Origin: a virus
Taxonomy: Duplodnaviria; Heunggongvirae; Uroviricota; Caudoviricetes
Length of the DNA: 64,000 bases
Virus record (IMG/VR): IMGVR_UViG_3300045988_149737
Reading direction: 5' to 3' (one strand)
In this document: in pieces, positions 33,081-46,030 of the stretch
How the letters are laid out: each line of letters starts with the position of its first letter
Numbering within the stretch: the first letter of the stretch is position 1
Translations under genes and position numbers: made by a program
The notes under the pieces: generated by a model
Told to the model about the DNA's origin: nothing
The model's database searches: none
Seen by the model: only the letters and a program-made list of their open reading frames with translations

Positions 33081-33237
33081 CCCGTCTCCTTTATTTTAAT
33101 TTGCGCAATTGTCGCCTTGTAGTGTACTCCAGCTACGACATTTAATCATTTATGAGAAATGCTGTTATCACATGGCAGACATAAGGCCATTTTGTTACTA
33201 TCAAGCCCCTTTTCACTACAAAGAAGTAATGCCTACT

Positions 33238-35271
33238 ATGACCCAAGTCGCGAAGAAAATTCTGGTGACGTGCGCGCTGCCGTACGCTAACGGCTCAATC
33301 CACCTCGGCCATATGCTGGAGCACATCCAGGCTGATGTCTGGGTTCGTTACCAGCGAATGCGCGGCCACGAGGTTAATTTCATCTGTGCCGACGATGCCC
33401 ACGGTACGCCGATCATGCTGAAAGCACAGCAGCTTGGTATCACACCGGAGCAGATGATTGGCGAAATGAGTCAGGAACACCAGACTGATTTCGCAGGCTT
33501 TAACATCAGCTATGACAACTATCACTCGACGCACAGCGAAGAGAACCGTCAGTTGTCTGAGCTTATCTATACTCGCCTGAAAGAGAACGGTTTTATTAAA
33601 AACCGCACTATCTCTCAGTTGTACGACCCGGAAAAAGGCATGTTCCTGCCGGATCGTTTTGTAAAAGGCACCTGCCCGAAATGTAAAGCGCCAGATCAAT
33701 ACGGCGATAACTGTGAAGTCTGCGGCGCAACATATAGCCCGACTGAATTGATCGAGCCGAAATCGGTGGTTTCTGGCGCTACCCCGGTAATGCGTGATTC
33801 CGAACACTTCTTCTTTGATCTGCCTTCTTTCAGCGAAATGCTGCAGGCATGGACCCGCAGCGGCGCGTTGCAGGAGCAGGTGGCGAACAAAATGCAGGAA
33901 TGGTTTGAATCCGGCCTGCAACAGTGGGATATCTCCCGCGATGCGCCTTACTTCGGTTTTGAAATTCCGAACGCGCCGGGCAAATATTTCTACGTCTGGC
34001 TGGACGCGCCGATTGGCTACATGGGTTCCTTCAAGAATCTGTGCGACAAGCGCGGCGATACCACCAGCTTCGATGAATACTGGAAGAAAGACTCCACCGC
34101 CGAGCTGTACCACTTCATCGGTAAAGATATTGTTTACTTCCACAGCCTGTTCTGGCCTGCCATGCTGGAAGGCAGCAACTTCCGCAAGCCGACCAACCTG
34201 TTTGTTCATGGCTATGTGACGGTGAACGGCGCGAAGATGTCCAAGTCTCGCGGCACGTTCATTAAAGCCAGCACCTGGCTGAATCATTTTGACGCTGATA
34301 GCTTGCGCTACTACTACACCGCGAAACTCTCTTCGCGCATCGATGATATCGACCTGAACCTGGAAGATTTCGTTCAGCGCGTGAATGCCGATATCGTCAA
34401 CAAAGTGGTTAACCTGGCCTCCCGTAATGCAGGCTTTATCAACAAGCGTTTTGACGGCGTGCTGGCAAGCGAACTGGCTGACCCTGAACTGTACAAAACC
34501 TTTACCGATGCCGCTGAAGTGATTGGCGAAGCATGGGAAAGCCGCGAATTTGGTAAAGCTATCCGTGAAATCATGGCATTGGCTGACCTGGCTAACCGCT
34601 ATGTCGATGAACAGGCTCCGTGGGTGGTGGCGAAGCAGGAAGGTCGCGATGCCGATCTGCAAGCGATTTGCTCTATGGGCATTAACCTGTTCCGCGTGCT
34701 GATGACGTACCTGAAACCGGTACTGCCGAAACTGACTGAACGTGCGGAAGCGTTCCTGAATACGGAACTGACCTGGGATGGTATCCAGCAACCGCTGCTG
34801 GCACATAAAGTGAATCCGTTCAAAGCACTGTATAACCGCATCGACATGAAGCAGGTTGAAGCACTGGTGGAAGCATCCAAAGAAGAAGTGAAAGCCACCG
34901 CCGCGCCAGTTACTGGCCCGCTGGCTGATGATCCGATTCAGGAAACCATCACCTTTGACGACTTCGCCAAAGTTGACCTGCGTGTGGCACTGATTGAAAA
35001 CGCGGAGTTTGTTGAAGGCTCTGACAAACTGCTGCGTCTGACACTGGATCTCGGTGGTGAAAAGCGTAATGTCTTCTCCGGCATCCGTTCTGCTTATCCA
35101 GACCCACAGGCACTGATTGGTCGTCACACCATTATGGTGGCTAACCTGGCTCCGCGTAAAATGCGCTTCGGTATCTCCGAAGGCATGGTGATGGCTGCTG
35201 GCCCTGGCGGAAAAGACATCTTCCTGTTAAGCCCGGATGCCGGTGCTAAACCAGGCCACCAAGTTAAGTAA
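33238..35271 (+). CDS. metG: Methionine--tRNA ligase
   Basis: 677 aa from [26 protein letters not shown] (HIGH motif), KMSKS motif present, zinc-binding CPKC...CEVC; start moved from upstream ATG to canonical MTQ. Confidence 0.9.
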
Positions 35272-35966: not shown

Positions 35967-36104
35967 ATCTGAAAACATATTCAAACCGTTGATAATGGCG
36001 GTCACAATTTGATTCTTTTCTATAAGAATCCGTTGATCGCCACTACCCCCATTCCATACCCGCAATCACATCCTTAAATTTCAATAAGTTATAGTTGTTT
36101 ATAC

Positions 36105-36985
36105 AATCAAGAAAACAACTGAATAACAGATCAACGAAACATCAACGCTTTCACCCGATTTGGTCTAAAAAATTGACGTTTTCACACATCACTGCTTATA
36201 CCCGTAATCCCACGCAGCAGATAGCGCCACAGCGTCCAAATTTCACCACAGACGACCCAACACACTACCAACAAAAACACACGCTCAAAATCGCTCTCGT
36301 TGCGTTACACAACCATATAAACAACTTATTTTCAGGCATAACAAAACAACTAAATAACACATGTGCCATTACCAAAAACAACCAACCTCTTTATGGCAGG
36401 CTACCGAAAAGACCCACCTCTTCTTCCCAGGCTACCGGACAACCAACCTAACTTTCACAGGCAATCCGAAAACATTCATACGCGCGATACCCACGACACG
36501 CCATTCCCCAAACAGCGAAGAAACACCAGAATCACTGAAACCCCAACGAAGCCTGTAACCGCAAGGATTCTCTCAATCCCAAAAGACACGAAACAGAACA
36601 ATCACGGGAAACGCCATTACCCAATACACGAATAACTACAAAAGCCTTTCACACACTCCAGACAAACAACTCAAACACAATAACGAAAGGAATCGCCCAC
36701 CTGCCATTACTCCATACACGGAGAAGAACAATCACCAAAACGACGAGAACACCCCATAGAAGAACCACTGCAAAACGAACGAAACCACATACACCGACAG
36801 AGAGAACAACACACCCAATTCACCAACAGAAATAGTCGCCGTATAGAACATTCTGGAAGGAGTGAGCATTAACGCCTATAGAGAGGTTGAAACAGATAAA
36901 ACACGAAGAAAACACAACATGTATAGCGAAGAAGCCAGGTATGTATAAGTGGGGAGGGAAGGAGGGGTGTCGCCTCCTTTTTCGT
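36105..36985 (+). ncRNA. Candidate long A+C-rich, G-poor non-coding RNA
   Basis: About 780 nt where the + strand is roughly 75-80 percent A+C (by eye); promoter-like motif at about 36070-36115 upstream and a terminator hairpin aaggaggggtgtcgcctcc plus ttttt at about 36950-36985; no minus-strand ORFs. Confidence 0.25.
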
Positions 36986-37039
36986 ATTTATTCAACTCCT
37001 GATTTTATCCCCCGTAACACCCCTACGGTCAGCCTTCGG

Positions 37040-37190
37040 TCCATACAGGGAAAAGGCTGCATCCCGCTACAGAAACGGCTGGGTTGCCTTCGGGGAACGG
37101 CTGGAGGTTTTCAGGGAAACGGTCGAGTTGCCTGTGTGGATTTCGGGAAAAGGCTCGATGCCGGTTCAGGAACGGCGGCGTACCGGTATA
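37040..37190. repeat. Array of about 6 direct repeats, consensus CAGGGAAACGGCT, at about 22-bp spacing
   Basis: cagggaaaaggctg, cagaaacggctg, cggggaacggctg, cagggaaacggtcg, cgggaaaaggctcg, caggaacggcgg. Confidence 0.5.
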
Positions 37191-37559
37191 GCGTGAGGGA
37201 GAGTTGCGGCTACCCACCTGTAATGTGCGGGAAGAAGAGAGGCGCTAACGTGCAGGCGAACTTACTTACCGCTGGATTCCCTCTGAATGCCCAACTACAG
37301 CGTAATTGTGCCAGACAGCCAACGGGTCACAATCGATTTCAGTAGGTTTTCGGGGAGAGGATTATTCTGCCCACCAGCCACTTTCGGCCACCAAATCAGA
37401 ATAATGTAAAAAGTGTACTCGGTACTGAACCTGAAAACTCACTGCCAAAACAACATTCACCGGAATAAAATCCTTTTTCGCCTTTGCGTTATTGCGATAA
37501 TAACGCCAACAAGAAAACAACATATTTAGACGTTGTAGAAACGAAGTGAGGATGAAGAG

Positions 37560-37778
37560 ATGATTAAGATGCCTGTGACGGTTGAGGTGTGGGGCGTGGA
37601 TTCCCTGGCTGAGTGTCTGGATGCAGTGGGGCCGGAGTTGTACCGCAAGTTGTGGTCGTTCGTCCCGGCAGAAGGGGAATCGCCCAAAGGGAAGGATATC
37701 TGGCACCTGCTGAGTGAAGATGAAAAGCGGGAGCTGGTGGGCGCGGTACACAGCGAGTTCCCGGACGACGAAGATTAA
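37560..37778 (+). CDS. hypothetical small early protein (72 aa)
   Basis: gagg RBS; followed by terminator aggccaccagcacggtggct plus tttt. Confidence 0.5.
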   Translation: MIKMPVTVEVWGVDSLAECLDAVGPELYRKLWSFVPAEGESPKGKDIWHLLSEDEKRELVGAVHSEFPDDED

Positions 37779-37917
37779 GAGTGAGGCCACCAGCACGGTG
37801 GCTTTTGTCGCTATTAACCTCCGGGGCAGCGCAGCACCGTAACGATATACTTTGTGGCCGTTTTCTTACTGGTATTGTTTACGCAATTCAGAAAACATGT
37901 TGTTTAAGGATTGCTTT

Positions 37918-38247
37918 ATGTTTGCAAATATCGACATCAACCAAATCAAGAAATTAACTCAAAAAGAGTTTGATCAGTTTTATGAGTTAGAAGGTTGGTC
38001 TTCCACTCTGATCAATTCGCGGTGGGTGCTTGAGCTGATGACTCGTGATGACGCACCTGCTTTGATGATTTGCGACATGGGTGAAGATGCTGACTTTATG
38101 GATATGAGCGAATTTTGTGTGGACACATACAACCGCAGCCAGAAGTACTACTTCACATGCGATAGCGAAAATGACGTGATTTCTAAGGTCTATCTTCACC
38201 TCGTCCAGCATTGGGACGTTCAGGAGTTTCTTGAGGTATTCGCGTAA
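37918..38247 (+). CDS. hypothetical small early protein (109 aa)
   Basis: Start moved downstream of the promoter motif; terminator aagccagcattgctggctt follows. Confidence 0.5.
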   Translation: MFANIDINQIKKLTQKEFDQFYELEGWSSTLINSRWVLELMTRDDAPALMICDMGEDADFMDMSEFCVDTYNRSQKYYFTCDSENDVISKVYLHLVQHWDVQEFLEVFA

Positions 38248-41170: not shown

Positions 41171-41539
41171 ATATAGAAAAAACATCGGGAAGCTGGTGGA
41201 ATCCAACCAGCGGTTGTCGGACAGGTGAGCGGGGAAAATTATGATGACTTTCGTCGCCTGAGACATCCAGATTTCTTTCGTAGCGTAATCACATATGTGA
41301 TTAAGTGGTGTGATTATGTGAAAAATCACGCGCACATAATACGCGAGCGGATACGGAACAAAACAAAATGCCGATCCGCGCCGACAATTAAACGCGGATC
41401 ATAAAGCAAGAATAAAAGCCAATGATTAACCATACACCATAGCGCAATATAACGCGTTTTAAGCGCGTTAATGTGTTGAGTAATGGGTATGTACTGGTAA
41501 GGATATAAAAGCGCGTCTGTGGCGTTATTTTGGCGCTTA

Positions 41540-41650
41540 TTTTATGTTGTTGGAGTGAGTCAAAGACAATAAAAAAGCGCCATCATTGGCGCGTTATGGT
41601 GGAAGTATTAGAAACGAAAAAAGCGCCCATAGTGGGCGCTAGATTTTATT
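41540..41650. terminator. Cluster of three A-tract/hairpin/T-tract terminators at a convergent transcription boundary
   Basis: agcgcgtctgtggcgtt, agcgccatcattggcgcg, agcgcccatagtgggcgct each flanked by A and T runs; a fourth copy near 41881-41915. Confidence 0.5.
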
Positions 41651-41876
41651 TATGTAAACTGATTTCAAATCCCATTTCTACAAACGCTTTTAACATTAAA
41701 AATATATCAGCGTCATTCACGTCTGCTTTTTTTCGCTCCTGGTCGCTCAATAAGTCAATTTTGCGCGTCGTTTCATCGATAAACTCGACTGCGCGCCCAG
41801 CGTAACCAGCGATCCCAGCGATGCGATTAACAAAATATTCATTGCGCACGTTAACGCCAGAGATAAGAATAAACAT
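41646..41876 (-). CDS. hypothetical protein (76 aa), low-GC
   Basis: Flanked on both sides by near-identical hairpins aaagcgcccatagtgggcgc. Confidence 0.4.
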   Translation of the reverse strand: MFILISGVNVRNEYFVNRIAGIAGYAGRAVEFIDETTRKIDLLSDQERKKADVNDADIFLMLKAFVEMGFEISLHK

Positions 41877-41923
41877 GATTAAGCTCCTTAAAAGCGCCCA
41901 TAGTGGGCGCCAGATTCCATTAA

Positions 41924-42574
41924 TTACGCTTTGAAAGCATCAGCCAGATAGTTATAGAAATCATTTTTAATAAAGCGATATTGCTGCGTACCAGCTTTTG
42001 CGCTTCCCATTCCTTTGACTTTCTCAACAAGTCCAAGACGTTCGCAAAGATTGATAAGCTGGTTGGCTTGAGTGTATCCTGCGTCTAATTTTATTTCGTT
42101 GGCTTTTTTCGCTTCATTCATTAAATCGAAAACAGCGCCATTTGTGAACGTCTCGATCTCGTCGTTAATCATATCGATTAATGCGAATACACGAGATCCG
42201 GACATATCAGCGACGGAATAAACACACTTTCCAGCTTTAATGGATTTAACCAGATAAACCAGTTTTTCCAGAGAGTAACTATTAGCCATTGCATCACGGA
42301 AAAATACTTCTGGCGCTTGTTTGCTTGCTTTGATCGCATAGTAGAAAACAGAGCACAATTTTTCGTCTTCTACAGCGTTTACAACGTTGTTGATGAAGTA
42401 AGCAAGTTTAGTGGTCGCAGCTTGCATATTTGCTTTATCTGCTTTGGTGTGCGTACCATTTTTATAATGTTCGTTATATGTTTGAGTTGCCAGATCTGCT
42501 TTTTCGCGCAGTTCATCGGATACAATGGAAGCAGCTTCAACGATGGATTTTTTAGAAATGATAATGTTAGCCAT
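41924..42574 (-). CDS. hypothetical protein (216 aa), low-GC
   Basis: ORF with AT-rich upstream region. Confidence 0.5.
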   Translation of the reverse strand: MANIIISKKSIVEAASIVSDELREKADLATQTYNEHYKNGTHTKADKANMQAATTKLAYFINNVVNAVEDEKLCSVFYYAIKASKQAPEVFFRDAMANSYSLEKLVYLVKSIKAGKCVYSVADMSGSRVFALIDMINDEIETFTNGAVFDLMNEAKKANEIKLDAGYTQANQLINLCERLGLVEKVKGMGSAKAGTQQYRFIKNDFYNYLADAFKA

Positions 42575-42857
42575 GATAATTTTTCCTTATGTAAATTTAA
42601 AATTTATTGTCGTTAGCGTCTTCGCTTTCGACGAGTTCAATTATCGATATGCGAAAAAAGATTGCAAGTGTTTTTTTAAAATTTTTTGCAGGGATGAAAG
42701 TCCTAGAAATAAAAGCGAGATCGTCGAAGGTGTTCCCTAAATAAATAATCGATTCCGGCTTTAGACCTTATATATATTTAGGTTATTTGATTTATAGATA
42801 TAAAGAAGTGATGTGAAAAATAATAACCGGACTTAGCCGGTTATTAACCTTATAGAT

Positions 42858-43166
42858 TTATTGAACAGACTCTACAGCCTTACGATTGGTGTCAAATAGC
42901 GCATCAACGAACTGTGCCGATGACTCGCTAGATTCGCAATCCAACATTGCCCGTTCTTCATTTGCCACTTTCTTACACAGTTCCACACTCTCACCTATCG
43001 CTTTTCCTGCTTTTACGGCTGCCGAAAATTGATACATGCAAACTGATACATTCTGAGACGTTGAGCACACGTCATTCATCAGCGACTGAATGACAGGCTT
43101 ATAGTCCATTGCATTTGCCGCAACTGAGCAAAGTAAAAATAATGGTGGTAACAATATCGATTTCAT
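42858..43166 (-). CDS. small secreted protein (102 aa) with signal peptide
   Basis: MKSILLPPLFLLCSVAANA-MDYK signal peptide with AxA cleavage site. Confidence 0.45.
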   Translation of the reverse strand: MKSILLPPLFLLCSVAANAMDYKPVIQSLMNDVCSTSQNVSVCMYQFSAAVKAGKAIGESVELCKKVANEERAMLDCESSESSAQFVDALFDTNRKAVESVQ

Positions 43167-43169
43167 AAC

Positions 43170-43772
43170 TCAAAAAGGCAAAATTCGTTCAACCCAATCG
43201 AACAAAACAACTATTTTTCTACCGTTCTCGACACGTAGTGTAACCTGACAAGCATCTGCGCCTGCTGACACCCCCTCAATTTCACGGCCATCCGCCATGT
43301 ACACCCTTATAGATTTGTTTGCTTTGTAGGCTTGGTTGCAAATTGCAAAAAAATCGCGGCGTGATGGCCGATTATCGACATAATCAGGGTGAACTGTTAG
43401 TCGACCTTTGAAATCGTGAGCGATACTGTCAACCACACCTGATTCAATTGTACTAATGCGTTCAAGTGGGAGCCTTATACGATTTTCTTTGTCAAAAGGG
43501 GCTGGGCAAAGGTCAACTTTGTTACGAGATGGCATGAGGCCATAAACGTACATGCAAAACGCCTGGCCATCTTCGAGAGTGACCCTTACAGGAATTTGTT
43601 CTCTGCGCCAGAACATCAGTAGTTTTTCAACGTTAGTGTAATCTCGCGGCCAGAGTTCAGCTTGGATACCGTAGGTAATATCTTTGGTTGTCATGTCATC
43701 ACAGAGTTGTTGGCAGAATGTCGATGTCACCAGAATTGCTGGTGAACACCCTGAACGCTTTTGTGTCTCCAT
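43170..43772 (-). CDS. hypothetical protein (200 aa, start uncertain; an internal Met would give 174 aa ending at 43694)
   Basis: The track start overlaps the upstream lipoprotein gene by about 70 nt. Confidence 0.45.
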   Translation of the reverse strand: METQKRSGCSPAILVTSTFCQQLCDDMTTKDITYGIQAELWPRDYTNVEKLLMFWRREQIPVRVTLEDGQAFCMYVYGLMPSRNKVDLCPAPFDKENRIRLPLERISTIESGVVDSIAHDFKGRLTVHPDYVDNRPSRRDFFAICNQAYKANKSIRVYMADGREIEGVSAGADACQVTLRVENGRKIVVLFDWVERILPF

Positions 43773-44121
43773 TCTTCAGAGTCGTTTCTCGCTCTTGACG
43801 AGCGGGGTTTAGAGCACATAAACCTGCACCTTCAAGAGATGCACCCACAATTAATTCTCCGGCATTTAAATGAAAAGTCGCTTTTTCGCCTGTAGCCAGT
43901 TTTGCGACAGTTTCGCCATTGATGAAAATGGAAGCATCACATCCAGCTCCTACAAAACCTGTGTCTCTCATTACCACCAACGTAGCTGGCGCTGCGCTTT
44001 GATACTTGAACACTTTGGCCTGCGGTGCTGGTTTGGCGTCATGGATTGATATTGGACGTGATTGGCACGCGGTAAGCATCAACACTGGTAACGTTAGTAG
44101 AGGGAGAAGCGAGTGTTTCAT
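43699..44121 (-). CDS. lipoprotein (about 140 aa)
   Basis: Start chosen at MKHSLLPLLTLPVLMLTAC, a typical lipobox (L-T-A-C). Confidence 0.55.
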   Translation of the reverse strand: MKHSLLPLLTLPVLMLTACQSRPISIHDAKPAPQAKVFKYQSAAPATLVVMRDTGFVGAGCDASIFINGETVAKLATGEKATFHLNAGELIVGASLEGAGLCALNPARQERETTLKNGDTKAFRVFTSNSGDIDILPTTL

Positions 44122-44189
44122 GTTAGTTTTAGAACAGAAAGTGAACAGTATGGGAGACTTCATCTTTGTCTCCCTAATTGATAGCGTGA

Positions 44190-44468
44190 TTATTTTAATC
44201 TGCTTAATAGCGTTTCGAGATCTTCCTTTGTCATATTAGAGTTCTCATAGATACGCATGATTTTCTCACGAGTCTTAGCGGAAGCCCCGACAGAAGATAT
44301 AACCTTGTCAAAGTCGGCCATTGTCAATTGTTCCAGAATGGTATTTATGACTTCAGCCTTAGACATTTTGATATTTTTTTCTTTTAGTTTCACTTGAAAC
44401 TTTCCAAGTTTGTCATTGGCCTTATCAGACAATGCTACCTGACAGTAAGTTGTTTTCTTTTCACTCAT
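44190..44468 (-). CDS. hypothetical protein (92 aa), possible ribbon-helix-helix DNA-binding protein
   Basis: Coupled downstream of the helicase; N-terminal beta-strand-like TTYCQVALSDKANDKL. Confidence 0.4.
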   Translation of the reverse strand: MSEKKTTYCQVALSDKANDKLGKFQVKLKEKNIKMSKAEVINTILEQLTMADFDKVISSVGASAKTREKIMRIYENSNMTKEDLETLLSRLK

Positions 44469-44470
44469 AA

Positions 44471-46030
44471 CTAATCTCGTTTCAGAACTCCAAAATCGAA
44501 TGCTCCATCAATAGGCAATACACCTTCTGCAAAGCCAGGTGTGGTGTCGATGATGTGTTTTCGCTCATAAGAGTGAGACAACAGGTATTTGTTGCTAATG
44601 TCAATGAAATCAGTGATAAAACACACGTTTGCCTGATTTTTTTTTGCTCGTAAGCCACGACCGACACGCTGTCTCATTTCAACTTCTGCTTTCCCACCAC
44701 CAGCAAGAATGACCGCACCAACGCTTGGCACATCAACACCGACATCCAGAATAGTCGAGCCTATTAAAACATCTATTTCACCAGACGCTAAACTATTCAG
44801 CTTTGCTTGCCTTGTCGTCTGGTTAGATTCCCCATAGATGAAATCAACTTTAAGACCTGACTCCTTCATCATCTCCATCAGGATTTGCCCGTGGCGTTTA
44901 AGACGAACCAGAGTCATGCAGTTGAGTGAATGTTGCTTATAAAGCAATGCCTCGCGCACTATGGCCTCGTTACGTCCCAAATTATACACGATCCCCAACT
45001 GATAAGCCTTTTGGTAGGCGGTGCTCATACCAACTCTAAAATTGAGGTGTTTGTTGGCAAGTTCGGCCTTGATTCTGGCCTCGTCTGGCTTGTAGGCAAC
45101 TTTATGATAAAGGAAGTACGGCTTTGCCAGAATGCCTCGATCAATCAGGTACTTTTCTGTGACTTTAATTTCAATTCGCCCGGCCACCGCCATCAGGCGC
45201 ATGTTGGCTTCCGTCGAATCCTTCATGAACGGCGTGGCTGTAAGCGCCAGACGATAGTCTGCGTTCACACATAATCTGGCGATGTCATAGAAATTTGAGC
45301 CTGAAGACTCATGCGCCTCTTCCAGAATAAGAAGAGAGACACTTGAAAGGAAGCGTTTCACCAACTCCCGACGTTTGAGGTGGTAGCTTTTCTTATCTGG
45401 TGTTGCATCGCGTGGTGGTTCTTCGAGGAAACTTGCAAGAGTTTGAACTGTAGCGACGTTGATATGTCGTGATACCTGGAACTCACCCGAGCCAATGACT
45501 CCAACCTTTTGGTCTTTTAACCACGGTTCGCCATTTTCGGCGCGGTAGTCGATGGATCTCTGGAAGTTTTCGGCCATTTGAAACATCAGAACAGAGCGGG
45601 TTGTTAAAAATAATGTCATTCGACCGATACGTGCAGCTGCTTTGCAGGCAACGTTAGATTTCCCGCCACCAGTAGCGATCTGCGCAATCATCATTCCCTC
45701 TCGAACCAGTGTTTCCACAGTCTGATCCTGATACGCATAATCAGGATTGTATGGGAATGGGTTAACCGCTGGATTTGGTTTACCAAGCGCCGGGGCTTTG
45801 TCTTTGCGGATATGAACACATTTGATGCCCGCCTTGTTCAAGTTCGCCGCTACAGGCTTGGCAAAGCCAGCAGGGAACGAGTTTTTACTCCAGTTGAACA
45901 TCGTGCTTGTGCCCTTCCAGTCGCCAGTCTCGACTTCGTAGCTCAACATTTGCTGCACCAGTTGCTTTACCTTGTCATCTGCGCCAGAAATAAGCGCATT
46001 TACTGCGTTAGATACAATCCGAACAGTCAT
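44471..46030 (-). CDS. Superfamily 2 DNA helicase (DExH-box)
   Basis: Walker A ATGGGKS, motif II LILEEAHE, later helicase-C-like region. Confidence 0.7.
   Translation of the reverse strand: MTVRIVSNAVNALISGADDKVKQLVQQMLSYEVETGDWKGTSTMFNWSKNSFPAGFAKPVAANLNKAGIKCVHIRKDKAPALGKPNPAVNPFPYNPDYAYQDQTVETLVREGMMIAQIATGGGKSNVACKAAARIGRMTLFLTTRSVLMFQMAENFQRSIDYRAENGEPWLKDQKVGVIGSGEFQVSRHINVATVQTLASFLEEPPRDATPDKKSYHLKRRELVKRFLSSVSLLILEEAHESSGSNFYDIARLCVNADYRLALTATPFMKDSTEANMRLMAVAGRIEIKVTEKYLIDRGILAKPYFLYHKVAYKPDEARIKAELANKHLNFRVGMSTAYQKAYQLGIVYNLGRNEAIVREALLYKQHSLNCMTLVRLKRHGQILMEMMKESGLKVDFIYGESNQTTRQAKLNSLASGEIDVLIGSTILDVGVDVPSVGAVILAGGGKAEVEMRQRVGRGLRAKKNQANVCFITDFIDISNKYLLSHSYERKHIIDTTPGFAEGVLPIDGAFDFGVLKRD

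Follow-up and report, generated by a model that had tools for sequence, protein, structure and literature searches.

The minus-strand genes at positions 41646-44468 of the IMG/VR virus record IMGVR_UViG_3300045988_149737, of which a stretch of 64,000 nucleotides (nt) was analysed as the window, appear, on a balance of evidence that leans modestly this way, to be the distal part of a conserved SSU5-type phage-plasmid operon expressed in lysogeny, followed by a two-gene unit under separate control. Confidence is high for the anatomy and the family assignments of this reading and low for its targets and functions. The same stretch had originally been predicted, from its letters alone, to be a compositionally distinct island with an envelope-based exclusion system and a toxin-antitoxin (TA) or abortive-infection (Abi) pair, but it is mostly ordinary backbone and the defence-island reading is to be downgraded.

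In the arrangement proposed here, the first unit would run from a helicase gene through p92, an exchange slot (slot A), the gene of an FljA-family protein and another slot (slot B) to a terminator. The FljA-family protein would be a small RNA-binding regulator made of two Hfq/Sm-like domains which, by analogy with FljA, most likely acts on one specific mRNA, binding its 5′ leader and preventing translation. The slots would exchange small accessory genes, here coding for an outer-membrane lipoprotein and a periplasmic protein with four cysteines. The lysogen would produce both proteins, and their most plausible role is to modify the envelope, in lysogenic conversion or exclusion. The second unit, comprising p216 and p76, would have its own conserved promoter and operator-like region, would be off in lysogeny and would probably serve a lytic-cycle or induction-phase function and not a TA or Abi one. 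For this particular element, we infer both the timing of p216 and p76 expression and the envelope function of the cargo.

Element identity, gene order and conservation

On its nucleotide matches, the whole window is assigned to an SSU5-type (SSU5-like) phage-plasmid. The region was 97-98.6% identical to non-mobilizable E. coli IncFIB plasmids of ~108 kb, and more than 100 sequenced plasmids carried near-identical DNA, annotated there as hypothetical proteins or transcriptional regulators. Salmonella phage SSU5 matched the region with 80% identity across 57% of the length, and further matches were found to the E. coli phage-plasmid Cyrano (pLF82) and to Klebsiella phage-plasmids. The features of the stretch and its borders are the following:

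44471..46030, minus strand: helicase, DEAD/DEAH (UvsW-like), 519 amino acids (aa); Pfam ResIII/DEAD/Helicase_C
44190..44468, minus strand: p92, AT-rich backbone protein, 92 aa; phrog_1466, full length
43699..44163, minus strand: slot A, lipoprotein precursor; phrog_890 'lipoprotein', E 1e-51
43170..43694, minus strand: FljA-family protein, 174 aa, conserved backbone gene; Pfam Flag1_repress, phrog_1444
42858..43166, minus strand: slot B, secreted protein, 102 aa; phrog_9536 'unknown'
42821..42846, minus strand: intrinsic terminator ending the helicase-p92-cargo-FljA unit; 10-bp stem, then TTTTT
42575..42820, minus strand: AT-rich control region of p216; promoter-like TTGCAA-16-GATAAT at 42667..42640 and a hairpin in the putative 5′ untranslated region
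41924..42574, minus strand: p216, backbone protein, 216 aa; phrog_1513, full length
41890..41924, minus strand: duplicated GC-rich hairpin, copy 1, between p216 and p76; followed by just TTTT and the p76 Shine-Dalgarno sequence
41646..41876, minus strand: p76, 76 aa; phrog_1585
41329..41653, minus strand: terminator cluster; hairpin copy 2 (41640..41622, then TTTTTT) and three terminator-like hairpins

The six minus-strand open reading frames (ORFs) described in the original prediction were all present in the ORF list, directly downstream of the helicase gene (44471-46030). All of them had full-length PHROG families, and the median ratios of non-synonymous to synonymous substitutions (dN/dS), computed from 18-70 unique homologous coding sequences per gene, were 0.07 for p92 and p216, 0.11 for the lipoprotein and FljA-like genes, 0.23 for the 102-aa gene and 0.26 for p76. 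Given this purifying selection (0.07-0.26) and the full-length families, the six ORFs are real genes. The helicase was 90-100% identical in relatives, with a dN/dS of 0.02, while p92 and p216 were found in all relatives with identities of 52-100% and 54-98%, respectively.

Gene order was examined in annotated contexts and in a tblastn survey of 87 related loci, and a single conserved order was found: ParB-ParB / helicase, p92, slot A, FljA-like gene, slot B, p216 and p76. The helicase, p92 and p216 occurred in every surveyed locus spanning them, and the FljA-like gene in 85 of the 87 loci bearing p216 (the two exceptions being partial loci), always directly upstream of p216 if slot B is set aside. 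The helicase, p92, FljA-like gene, p216 and usually p76 were syntenic in Escherichia, Salmonella, Klebsiella, Enterobacter and the Y. pestis plasmid pMT1. SSU5, Cyrano, S. Typhi pHCM2 and pMT1 (strain CO92) shared the backbone order of the window, and this order was kept in a distant K. pneumoniae clade although the FljA-like protein was only 36% identical there. Homology and synteny thus divide the six genes into four that form part of the backbone throughout the SSU5 group and two that are exchangeable cargo.

The contrast in composition that the original prediction had noted was real, although its interpretation was not upheld. The 2,823-nt stretch had a GC content of 0.408, the minimum among windows of the same length in the 64 kb (mean 0.465). 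However, the low GC was carried by p92 (0.358), p216 (0.390), p76 (0.398) and a 283-nt intergenic region (0.304), whereas the variable genes had ordinary values (0.475 for the lipoprotein gene and 0.427 for the 102-aa gene), as did the FljA-like gene (0.448). Low GC was rejected as the mark of a horizontally acquired part, since the AT-rich genes are the conserved ones; their belonging to the backbone is the reverse of what a foreign island would show, and with four of the six genes being AT-rich, syntenic SSU5-group backbone, the compositionally distinct island does not stand.

Instead of one island, the stretch is two transcription units, because a strong terminator (42846..42821) comes after the 102-aa gene and a conserved promoter-like region precedes p216. 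This terminator was at least 90% conserved in 76 unique relatives. The helicase is the first gene of the unit running into the stretch; 2 nt separate its stop from the start of p92, which is translationally coupled to it.

The 174-aa protein, its family and its predicted fold

The original prediction listed an unknown 200-aa protein at this position and overlooked its relationship to a regulator family. The 200-aa ORF (43170-43772) was rejected as over-extended, overlapping the lipoprotein gene; the PGAP, Pfam and PHROG alignments place the true start at the ATG at 43694, 4 nt past the lipoprotein stop, giving a real length of 174 aa. This protein matched PF03614 (Flag1_repress), described in Pfam as 'repressor of phase-1 flagellin', with an E-value of 2.5e-84 and 281.7 bits (cut-off 24), over positions 1-170 of the 170-position profile. 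When 1.84 billion representatives were searched exhaustively with HMMER, just 26 clusters (50% identity) came out for the FljA family, which is therefore very small. Among them, cluster P0124 is annotated as 'phase 1 flagellin gene repressor FljA [Salmonella enterica]', a protein of the same length that aligned collinearly over its full length with 36% identity (E 1e-37) and with common motifs at both ends, namely DI(S/T)YG..AE.WPRDY at the N-terminus and PSRRD(F/Y)F.IC...FDWV.RI at the C-terminus. Judged by these alignments, the 174-aa protein is a member of the FljA family. The homology itself was recognised long ago, as can be seen from the annotations 'putative repressor of phase 1 flagellin' in SSU5 and 'repressor of fliC' in a ~107-kb S. 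Typhi contig, which we take to be pHCM2. It thus already stands in database annotations, and the SSU5-type gene is a member of the known FljA family.

In the predicted model, two tandem Hfq/Sm-like domains spanned the whole protein. The model contained the elements that define the Sm/Hfq-like fold, a helix at the N-terminus and then a bent beta-sheet of five strands, and the closest structural matches were Hfq itself, so that the modelled fold of the 174-aa protein is a tandem Sm/Hfq-like one. A Foldseek comparison of the model with viral structures returned single-domain Sm-like phage proteins only, with no two-domain match. BLASTP between the two Sm halves did not detect the internal repeat, which is visible only in structure, and a PDB search with the FljA-like profile gave nothing meaningful. 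No helix-turn-helix (HTH) or other DNA-binding domain was found in the protein. Hfq and the bacterial Sm-like RNA chaperones form a ring of single-domain subunits, unlike the two fused Sm domains predicted here. Moreover, canonical FljA aligns with the 174-aa protein over both modelled domains and probably shares the two-domain fold. The tandem fold, as modelled, fits the post-transcriptional action reported for FljA-type repressors, and by this analogy we infer that the FljA-like protein is an RNA-binding regulator. In the literature searched, no paper linked FljA to the Sm/Hfq fold, and none connected fljA with SSU5, phage-plasmids or pMT1.

Expression in lysogens of the relative Cyrano

Expression values were taken from the S1 Table of PMC9928086, which covers all Cyrano genes in transcriptomes of E. 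coli LF82 and is given as log2 of fragments per kilobase per million reads (FPKM), with a scale floor of 2.32. The values below follow the order overnight LB / 1 h medium / 6 h medium / 1 h macrophages / 6 h macrophages:

Helicase, CYRAN_118: 5.5 / 7.5 / 7.8 / 8.3 / 7.3
p92 homologue, CYRAN_117: 6.8 / 9.0 / 9.9 / 8.9 / 8.7
Slot A lipoprotein, CYRAN_115: 4.8 / 8.0 / 9.2 / 9.3 / 8.7
FljA-like, CYRAN_114: 4.2 / 7.2 / 7.0 / 8.1 / 8.0
p216 homologue, CYRAN_113: 2.5 / 2.8 / 3.1 / 3.7 / 5.6
p76 homologue, CYRAN_112: 2.3 / 3.1 / 3.5 / 4.4 / 4.6

In the same source, CYRAN_117 is listed as a moron expressed 12 times above background, the expression of CYRAN_114 is comparable to that of RepA, the structural genes of Cyrano lie at ~3-4 log2 and its bona fide TA genes at log2 6-11, which is 9-60 times above background (PMC9928086). 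Expression of CYRAN_114, CYRAN_115 and CYRAN_117 was 4-20 times higher when the bacteria were growing or inside macrophages than after overnight culture in LB (PMC9928086), so the operon appears to be regulated by growth phase or condition. Overall, Cyrano expression matches the two-unit anatomy predicted from sequence, with unit 1 on and unit 2 off in lysogeny. Furthermore, the p216 and p76 homologues were near background, unlike the TA genes, which argues against a TA or Abi module.

Exchange slots and envelope proteins

Among 83 loci, slot A held the lipoprotein of the window in 38, and elsewhere a 199-aa cytoplasmic protein, a 204-aa protein, a 119-aa signal-peptide protein or a 266-aa lipoprotein on the opposite strand. 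Slot B held the 102-aa secreted protein in 24 loci and a 99-aa secreted analogue with four Cys in 8, being otherwise empty. SSU5 and pMT1 encode the lipoprotein family of the window (78-81% identity) and lack the 102-aa protein, while slot A of Cyrano, unlike that of the window, holds the 199-aa protein together with the 266-aa lipoprotein in opposite orientation. Both genes co-occurred in 19 loci, the lipoprotein gene stood alone in 19, the secreted-protein gene alone in 5, and 40 loci had neither, which indicates that the two assort independently and form no obligate pair. Whether the stretch varies among related elements, a question raised by the original prediction, therefore has a divided answer: the lipoprotein and 102-aa genes (the two slots) vary, whereas the other four genes are syntenic backbone.

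The lipobox lipoprotein and the signal-peptide protein reported earlier are both readable in the sequence. The lipoprotein starts at 44163 (with a GGGAG Shine-Dalgarno sequence) or at 44121, and it shows the signal peptide, lipobox and invariant Cys of a signal peptidase II substrate (L-[AS]-[GA]-C). The lipobox reads LTAC (...LPVLMLTAC, followed by Q) and is conserved, the Cys being invariant in 13 of 13 aligned homologues. Under the Lol sorting rule, a +2 residue other than Asp leads to the outer membrane, and with Gln at +2 this lipoprotein is predicted to be sorted there. Its mature part contains two conserved Cys, and its homologues were mostly found on ~110-kb phage-plasmid contigs. Against DUF2846 (PF11008) it scored 17.8 bits in a partial match, below the cut-off of 34.3 (E 0.0035), and its profile found no PDB relative by sequence; the AF2 model, built from a 13-sequence alignment, was poor (pLDDT 50) and all-beta. 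The 102-aa protein has the signal peptide MKSILLPPLFLLCSVAANA, ending in A-N-A (...CSVAANA, followed by MDYK), and a mature part of ~83 aa with four Cys; it had no match in Pfam, NCBIfam, PADLOC or PDB. According to these searches, the lipoprotein is not a member of DUF2846, Llp or Cor, and p92, p216, p76 and the 102-aa protein belong to families of unknown function.

Genes for lipoproteins or secreted proteins recur in the slots, and lysogens express the operon. The two envelope proteins are therefore consistent with lysogenic-conversion or exclusion morons, the nearest known counterparts being T5 Llp, Cor (phi80/N15/HK022) and lambda Bor. With these systems they share a small lipoprotein, predicted to be at the outer membrane, on a temperate element, and the likeness, which is one of gene class only, extends to an operon expressed in lysogens (of the relative Cyrano). 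Llp and Cor are smaller than the mature part of the window lipoprotein (~120 aa, predicted to be all-beta), which had no detectable similarity to any exclusion family of PHROGs or PADLOC, Llp and Cor included.

The p216/p76 unit, its control region and p92

The 283-nt intergenic region (42575-42857) contained many columns at least 90% identical in 76 unique relatives, being conserved about as much as the flanking coding sequence. The putative leader of p216 contains the hairpin or palindrome GTCGAAAGCGAAGACGCTAACGAC, also written as GTCGAAAGCG AAGA CGCTAACGAC (GTCG-AA-AGCG-AAGA-CGCT-AA-CGAC). Compared with shuffled sequences its fold was marginal (z -1.6), and it is too conserved for a covariation test. 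The palindromic element is likely to be an operator or leader element, and the region is a candidate target or operator of the FljA-like protein, nothing more.

No family, defence or PDB match was found for p216. The p76 gene was semi-conserved, occurring as alleles with at least 86% identity or as a 49% allele, or being missing or unrecognisable. It is flanked by a 35-nt direct repeat (GGCGCCCACTATGGGCGC core stem-loop) at 41890-41924 and 41619-41653, the two copies being 89% identical, and further terminator sites were located at 41592..41577, 41401..41372 and 41345..41329. A terminator scan gave 15 terminator-like sites, compared with 5.3 expected. The duplicated hairpins around the 76-aa gene and the adjoining terminator cluster had thus been correctly recognised in the original prediction. 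In SSU5, the ORF at the p76 position (SSU5_119, L001 4123-4326) is annotated as 'MIT family metal ion transporter (CorA)' at only 67 aa, which is almost certainly a mis-annotation.

For p92, the suggestion of a possible ribbon-helix-helix (RHH) protein came from a pattern seen by eye and found no backing: no RHH family was matched at E <= 0.1 in Pfam or NCBIfam, and the PDB search gave designed helical proteins only. PDB sequence and profile searches with p76, p216, p92 and the 102-aa protein were likewise without a meaningful match, and the NCBIfam search of the six proteins gave none above threshold. The PADLOC scan returned nothing for five of the six proteins and two weak matches for p92 (E 0.006-0.008), taken as chance, and generic helicase similarities only for the helicase. 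The Rfam, tRNA and tandem-repeat scans gave nothing.

Target of the FljA-like protein and alternative explanations

One alternative, which we consider unlikely, takes the family name at its word: the FljA-like protein would bind the host fliC leader and block flagellin synthesis, giving a less flagellated lysogen and, together with the envelope proteins, a surface-remodelling conversion cassette. Such a shut-off could exclude flagellotropic phages, lower TLR5 detection and save energy, and, if it occurs in motile hosts, a strain carrying the element would differ in motility, in H-antigen expression and in its sensitivity to flagellotropic phages. FljA-type proteins prevent the translation of fliC mRNA and act across genera, plasmid-borne fljA(z66) turning motile E. 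coli non-motile (PMC2652032); the membership is full length with both terminal motifs conserved, the homologue is transcribed in Cyrano lysogens and many hosts are flagellated (Escherichia, Salmonella, Enterobacter and Citrobacter). The window gene also resembles fljA(z66) of plasmid pBSSB1, to which the E. coli phase-1 flagellin repressor (AB128916.1) is 98% identical, in lying on a mobile element. However, the identity to canonical FljA is 36%, marking a distinct subfamily, compared with the 67% reported between the z66/E. coli and LT2 repressors (PMC2652032). By tblastn, the FljA-like gene was found in 835 plasmid records (826 full length), including 345 of Klebsiella and 62 of Yersinia (pMT1), the further hosts being Escherichia, Enterobacter, Salmonella, Citrobacter and Cronobacter. 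Klebsiella and Y. pestis are non-motile, yet their plasmids carry the gene intact, under purifying selection in a comparison of 55 unique copies pooled across hosts (dN/dS 0.11), and the Klebsiella clade keeps the synteny at 36% identity. Unlike fljA, the window gene is a syntenic phage-plasmid core gene, non-flagellate hosts included, and has no linked flagellin gene or invertase; in place of an alternative flagellin gene (fljB, flkA or fljB-z66), the genes upstream are those of the lipoprotein, p92 and the helicase. No flagellin (FliC) homologue was found in the 64-kb window or the 87 related loci, nor was there a flagellin gene in the complete gene list of Cyrano, and the E. coli fliC leader gave only chance-level matches in the window (E of at least 0.3). 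Moreover, E. coli LF82 carries and transcribes CYRAN_114, which is 78% identical to the window protein, and yet 'very active motility' and flagellin production are reported for this strain (PMC5961443). The non-flagellate hosts, the lack of a flagellin gene and the motile carrier suggest that the main target is probably not, or not only, host fliC, and so probably differs from that of FljA; together with the lack of a leader-like sequence, LF82 motility and carriage in Klebsiella and Y. pestis point indirectly against binding of the fliC leader. The main target is more likely to be a transcript of the phage-plasmid, or else some host mRNA that is not fliC, than host flagellin, while a partial or conditional flagellin repression may occur in motile hosts. 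A tentative proposal, itself rather unlikely, is that the FljA-like protein represents the founding, phage-plasmid form of the family, a tandem-Sm translational repressor acting on a transcript of the phage-plasmid (e.g. that of the lysogeny-silent p216/p76 unit), the flagellar phase-variation repressor FljA of Salmonella and E. coli being a domesticated copy retargeted to fliC; in that case, it would help to hold lysogeny or time induction, for instance through the p216/p76 leader hairpin. A DNA-binding or ligand-sensing transcription factor, perhaps a WYL-like Sm-fold sensor acting on the p216 promoter, would agree with the PGAP and PHROG label of transcriptional regulator or repressor and with the constant position of the gene, which immediately precedes the conserved control region of p216, but it is very unlikely for a protein that lacks an HTH or DNA-binding domain, is modelled throughout as two Sm-like barrels with Hfq itself as best match, and whose characterised relatives act post-transcriptionally (PMC2652032).

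The explanation given in the original prediction, in which the lipoprotein and the 102-aa protein act in superinfection exclusion or receptor masking (as T5 Llp and Cor do) and p216 with p76 is an Abi or TA pair, is quite unlikely as a whole. Its envelope half retains some appeal, as the two genes lie on a temperate-phage element, in variable slots that recurrently hold lipoprotein or secreted-protein genes and within an operon expressed in Cyrano lysogens, and the +2 Gln predicts a location at the outer membrane, where phage receptors sit. However, neither protein matched an exclusion or defence family in PHROGs or PADLOC or had structural evidence of such a role, and they assort independently, the same lipoprotein occurring on pMT1 and SSU5 without the secreted protein. 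As for p216 and p76, neither the domains nor the constitutive lysogen expression of a TA or Abi module were found: no signature was detected in Pfam, NCBIfam or PADLOC, p216 is universal backbone without toxin or antitoxin domains, and the pair is near-silent in lysogens where Cyrano TA genes are well expressed. Homology to conserved lysis or structural genes, which the original prediction had named as its counter-evidence, was not found either. The reading of the stretch as a conserved lysogeny operon followed by a separate unit has its own points to answer. The expression data come from Cyrano, in which the content of slot A differs from that of the window; the lipoprotein model is too poor for a fold comparison, giving no positive support for an exclusion role; and the searches gave no clue to the function of p216 and p76. 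Furthermore, the argument against a fliC target is indirect. The motility of LF82 could mean that little of the protein is made or that its fliC leader is an escape variant, and Klebsiella elements could keep the gene because it serves them once they have moved to motile hosts. Lastly, the search of the window yielded no operator candidate to set in its favour, with the hairpin upstream of p216 at a marginal z and no sequence like the E. coli fliC leader.

Phage-plasmids of the SSU5 type are frequent among clinical Enterobacteriaceae, and although Y. pestis pMT1 and S. Typhi pHCM2 belong to them, their regulation has hardly been studied. A core Sm-like RNA-binding protein expressed in lysogeny would give a handle on post-transcriptional control in these elements and would bear on the origin of FljA, while lysogenic-conversion or exclusion functions can be sought at a defined site, the two exchange slots for envelope proteins.

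Additional observations on the window and related loci

An FljA-like gene with 52% identity was found in an E. coli chromosome (CP125919.1, 385158-397682; locus L088), a 5.2-Mb contig, with neighbours of p92 and p76 size, which suggests an SSU5-like element or remnant integrated into the chromosome. SSU5-like loci or proteins were also assigned to a 'Bacillota bacterium' metagenome-assembled genome (L087, JAEWTL010000044.1) and to Gemella morbillorum (P0079); the most likely cause of both attributions is phage-plasmid DNA from enterobacteria that was wrongly binned or present as contamination.

Outside the stretch, a full-length methionyl-tRNA synthetase gene, homologous to CYRAN_100 of Cyrano, was located at 33109-35271 (plus strand); the listed ORF begins at an upstream TTG, and the true start is probably an internal Met. 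Next, the region 36090-37350 (plus strand) had an ORF-free part of ~800 nt whose composition is extreme (40% A, 30% C, 14% G and 16% T), with no match in the Rfam, tRNA and TRF scans. In NZ_CP061531.1, PGAP placed no coding sequence over most of the matching stretch (window ~36363-37919). Degenerate 31-nt tandem units were found at 36376-36467, together with scattered AACAAC-type repeats, and four G-rich motifs of the GGGAA(A/C)(A)GG(C/T)(T/C) type, such as GGGAAAAGGCT and GGAAACGGTC, followed at 37048-37181. This region may be a non-coding RNA, an iteron-like origin or a centromere-like site.

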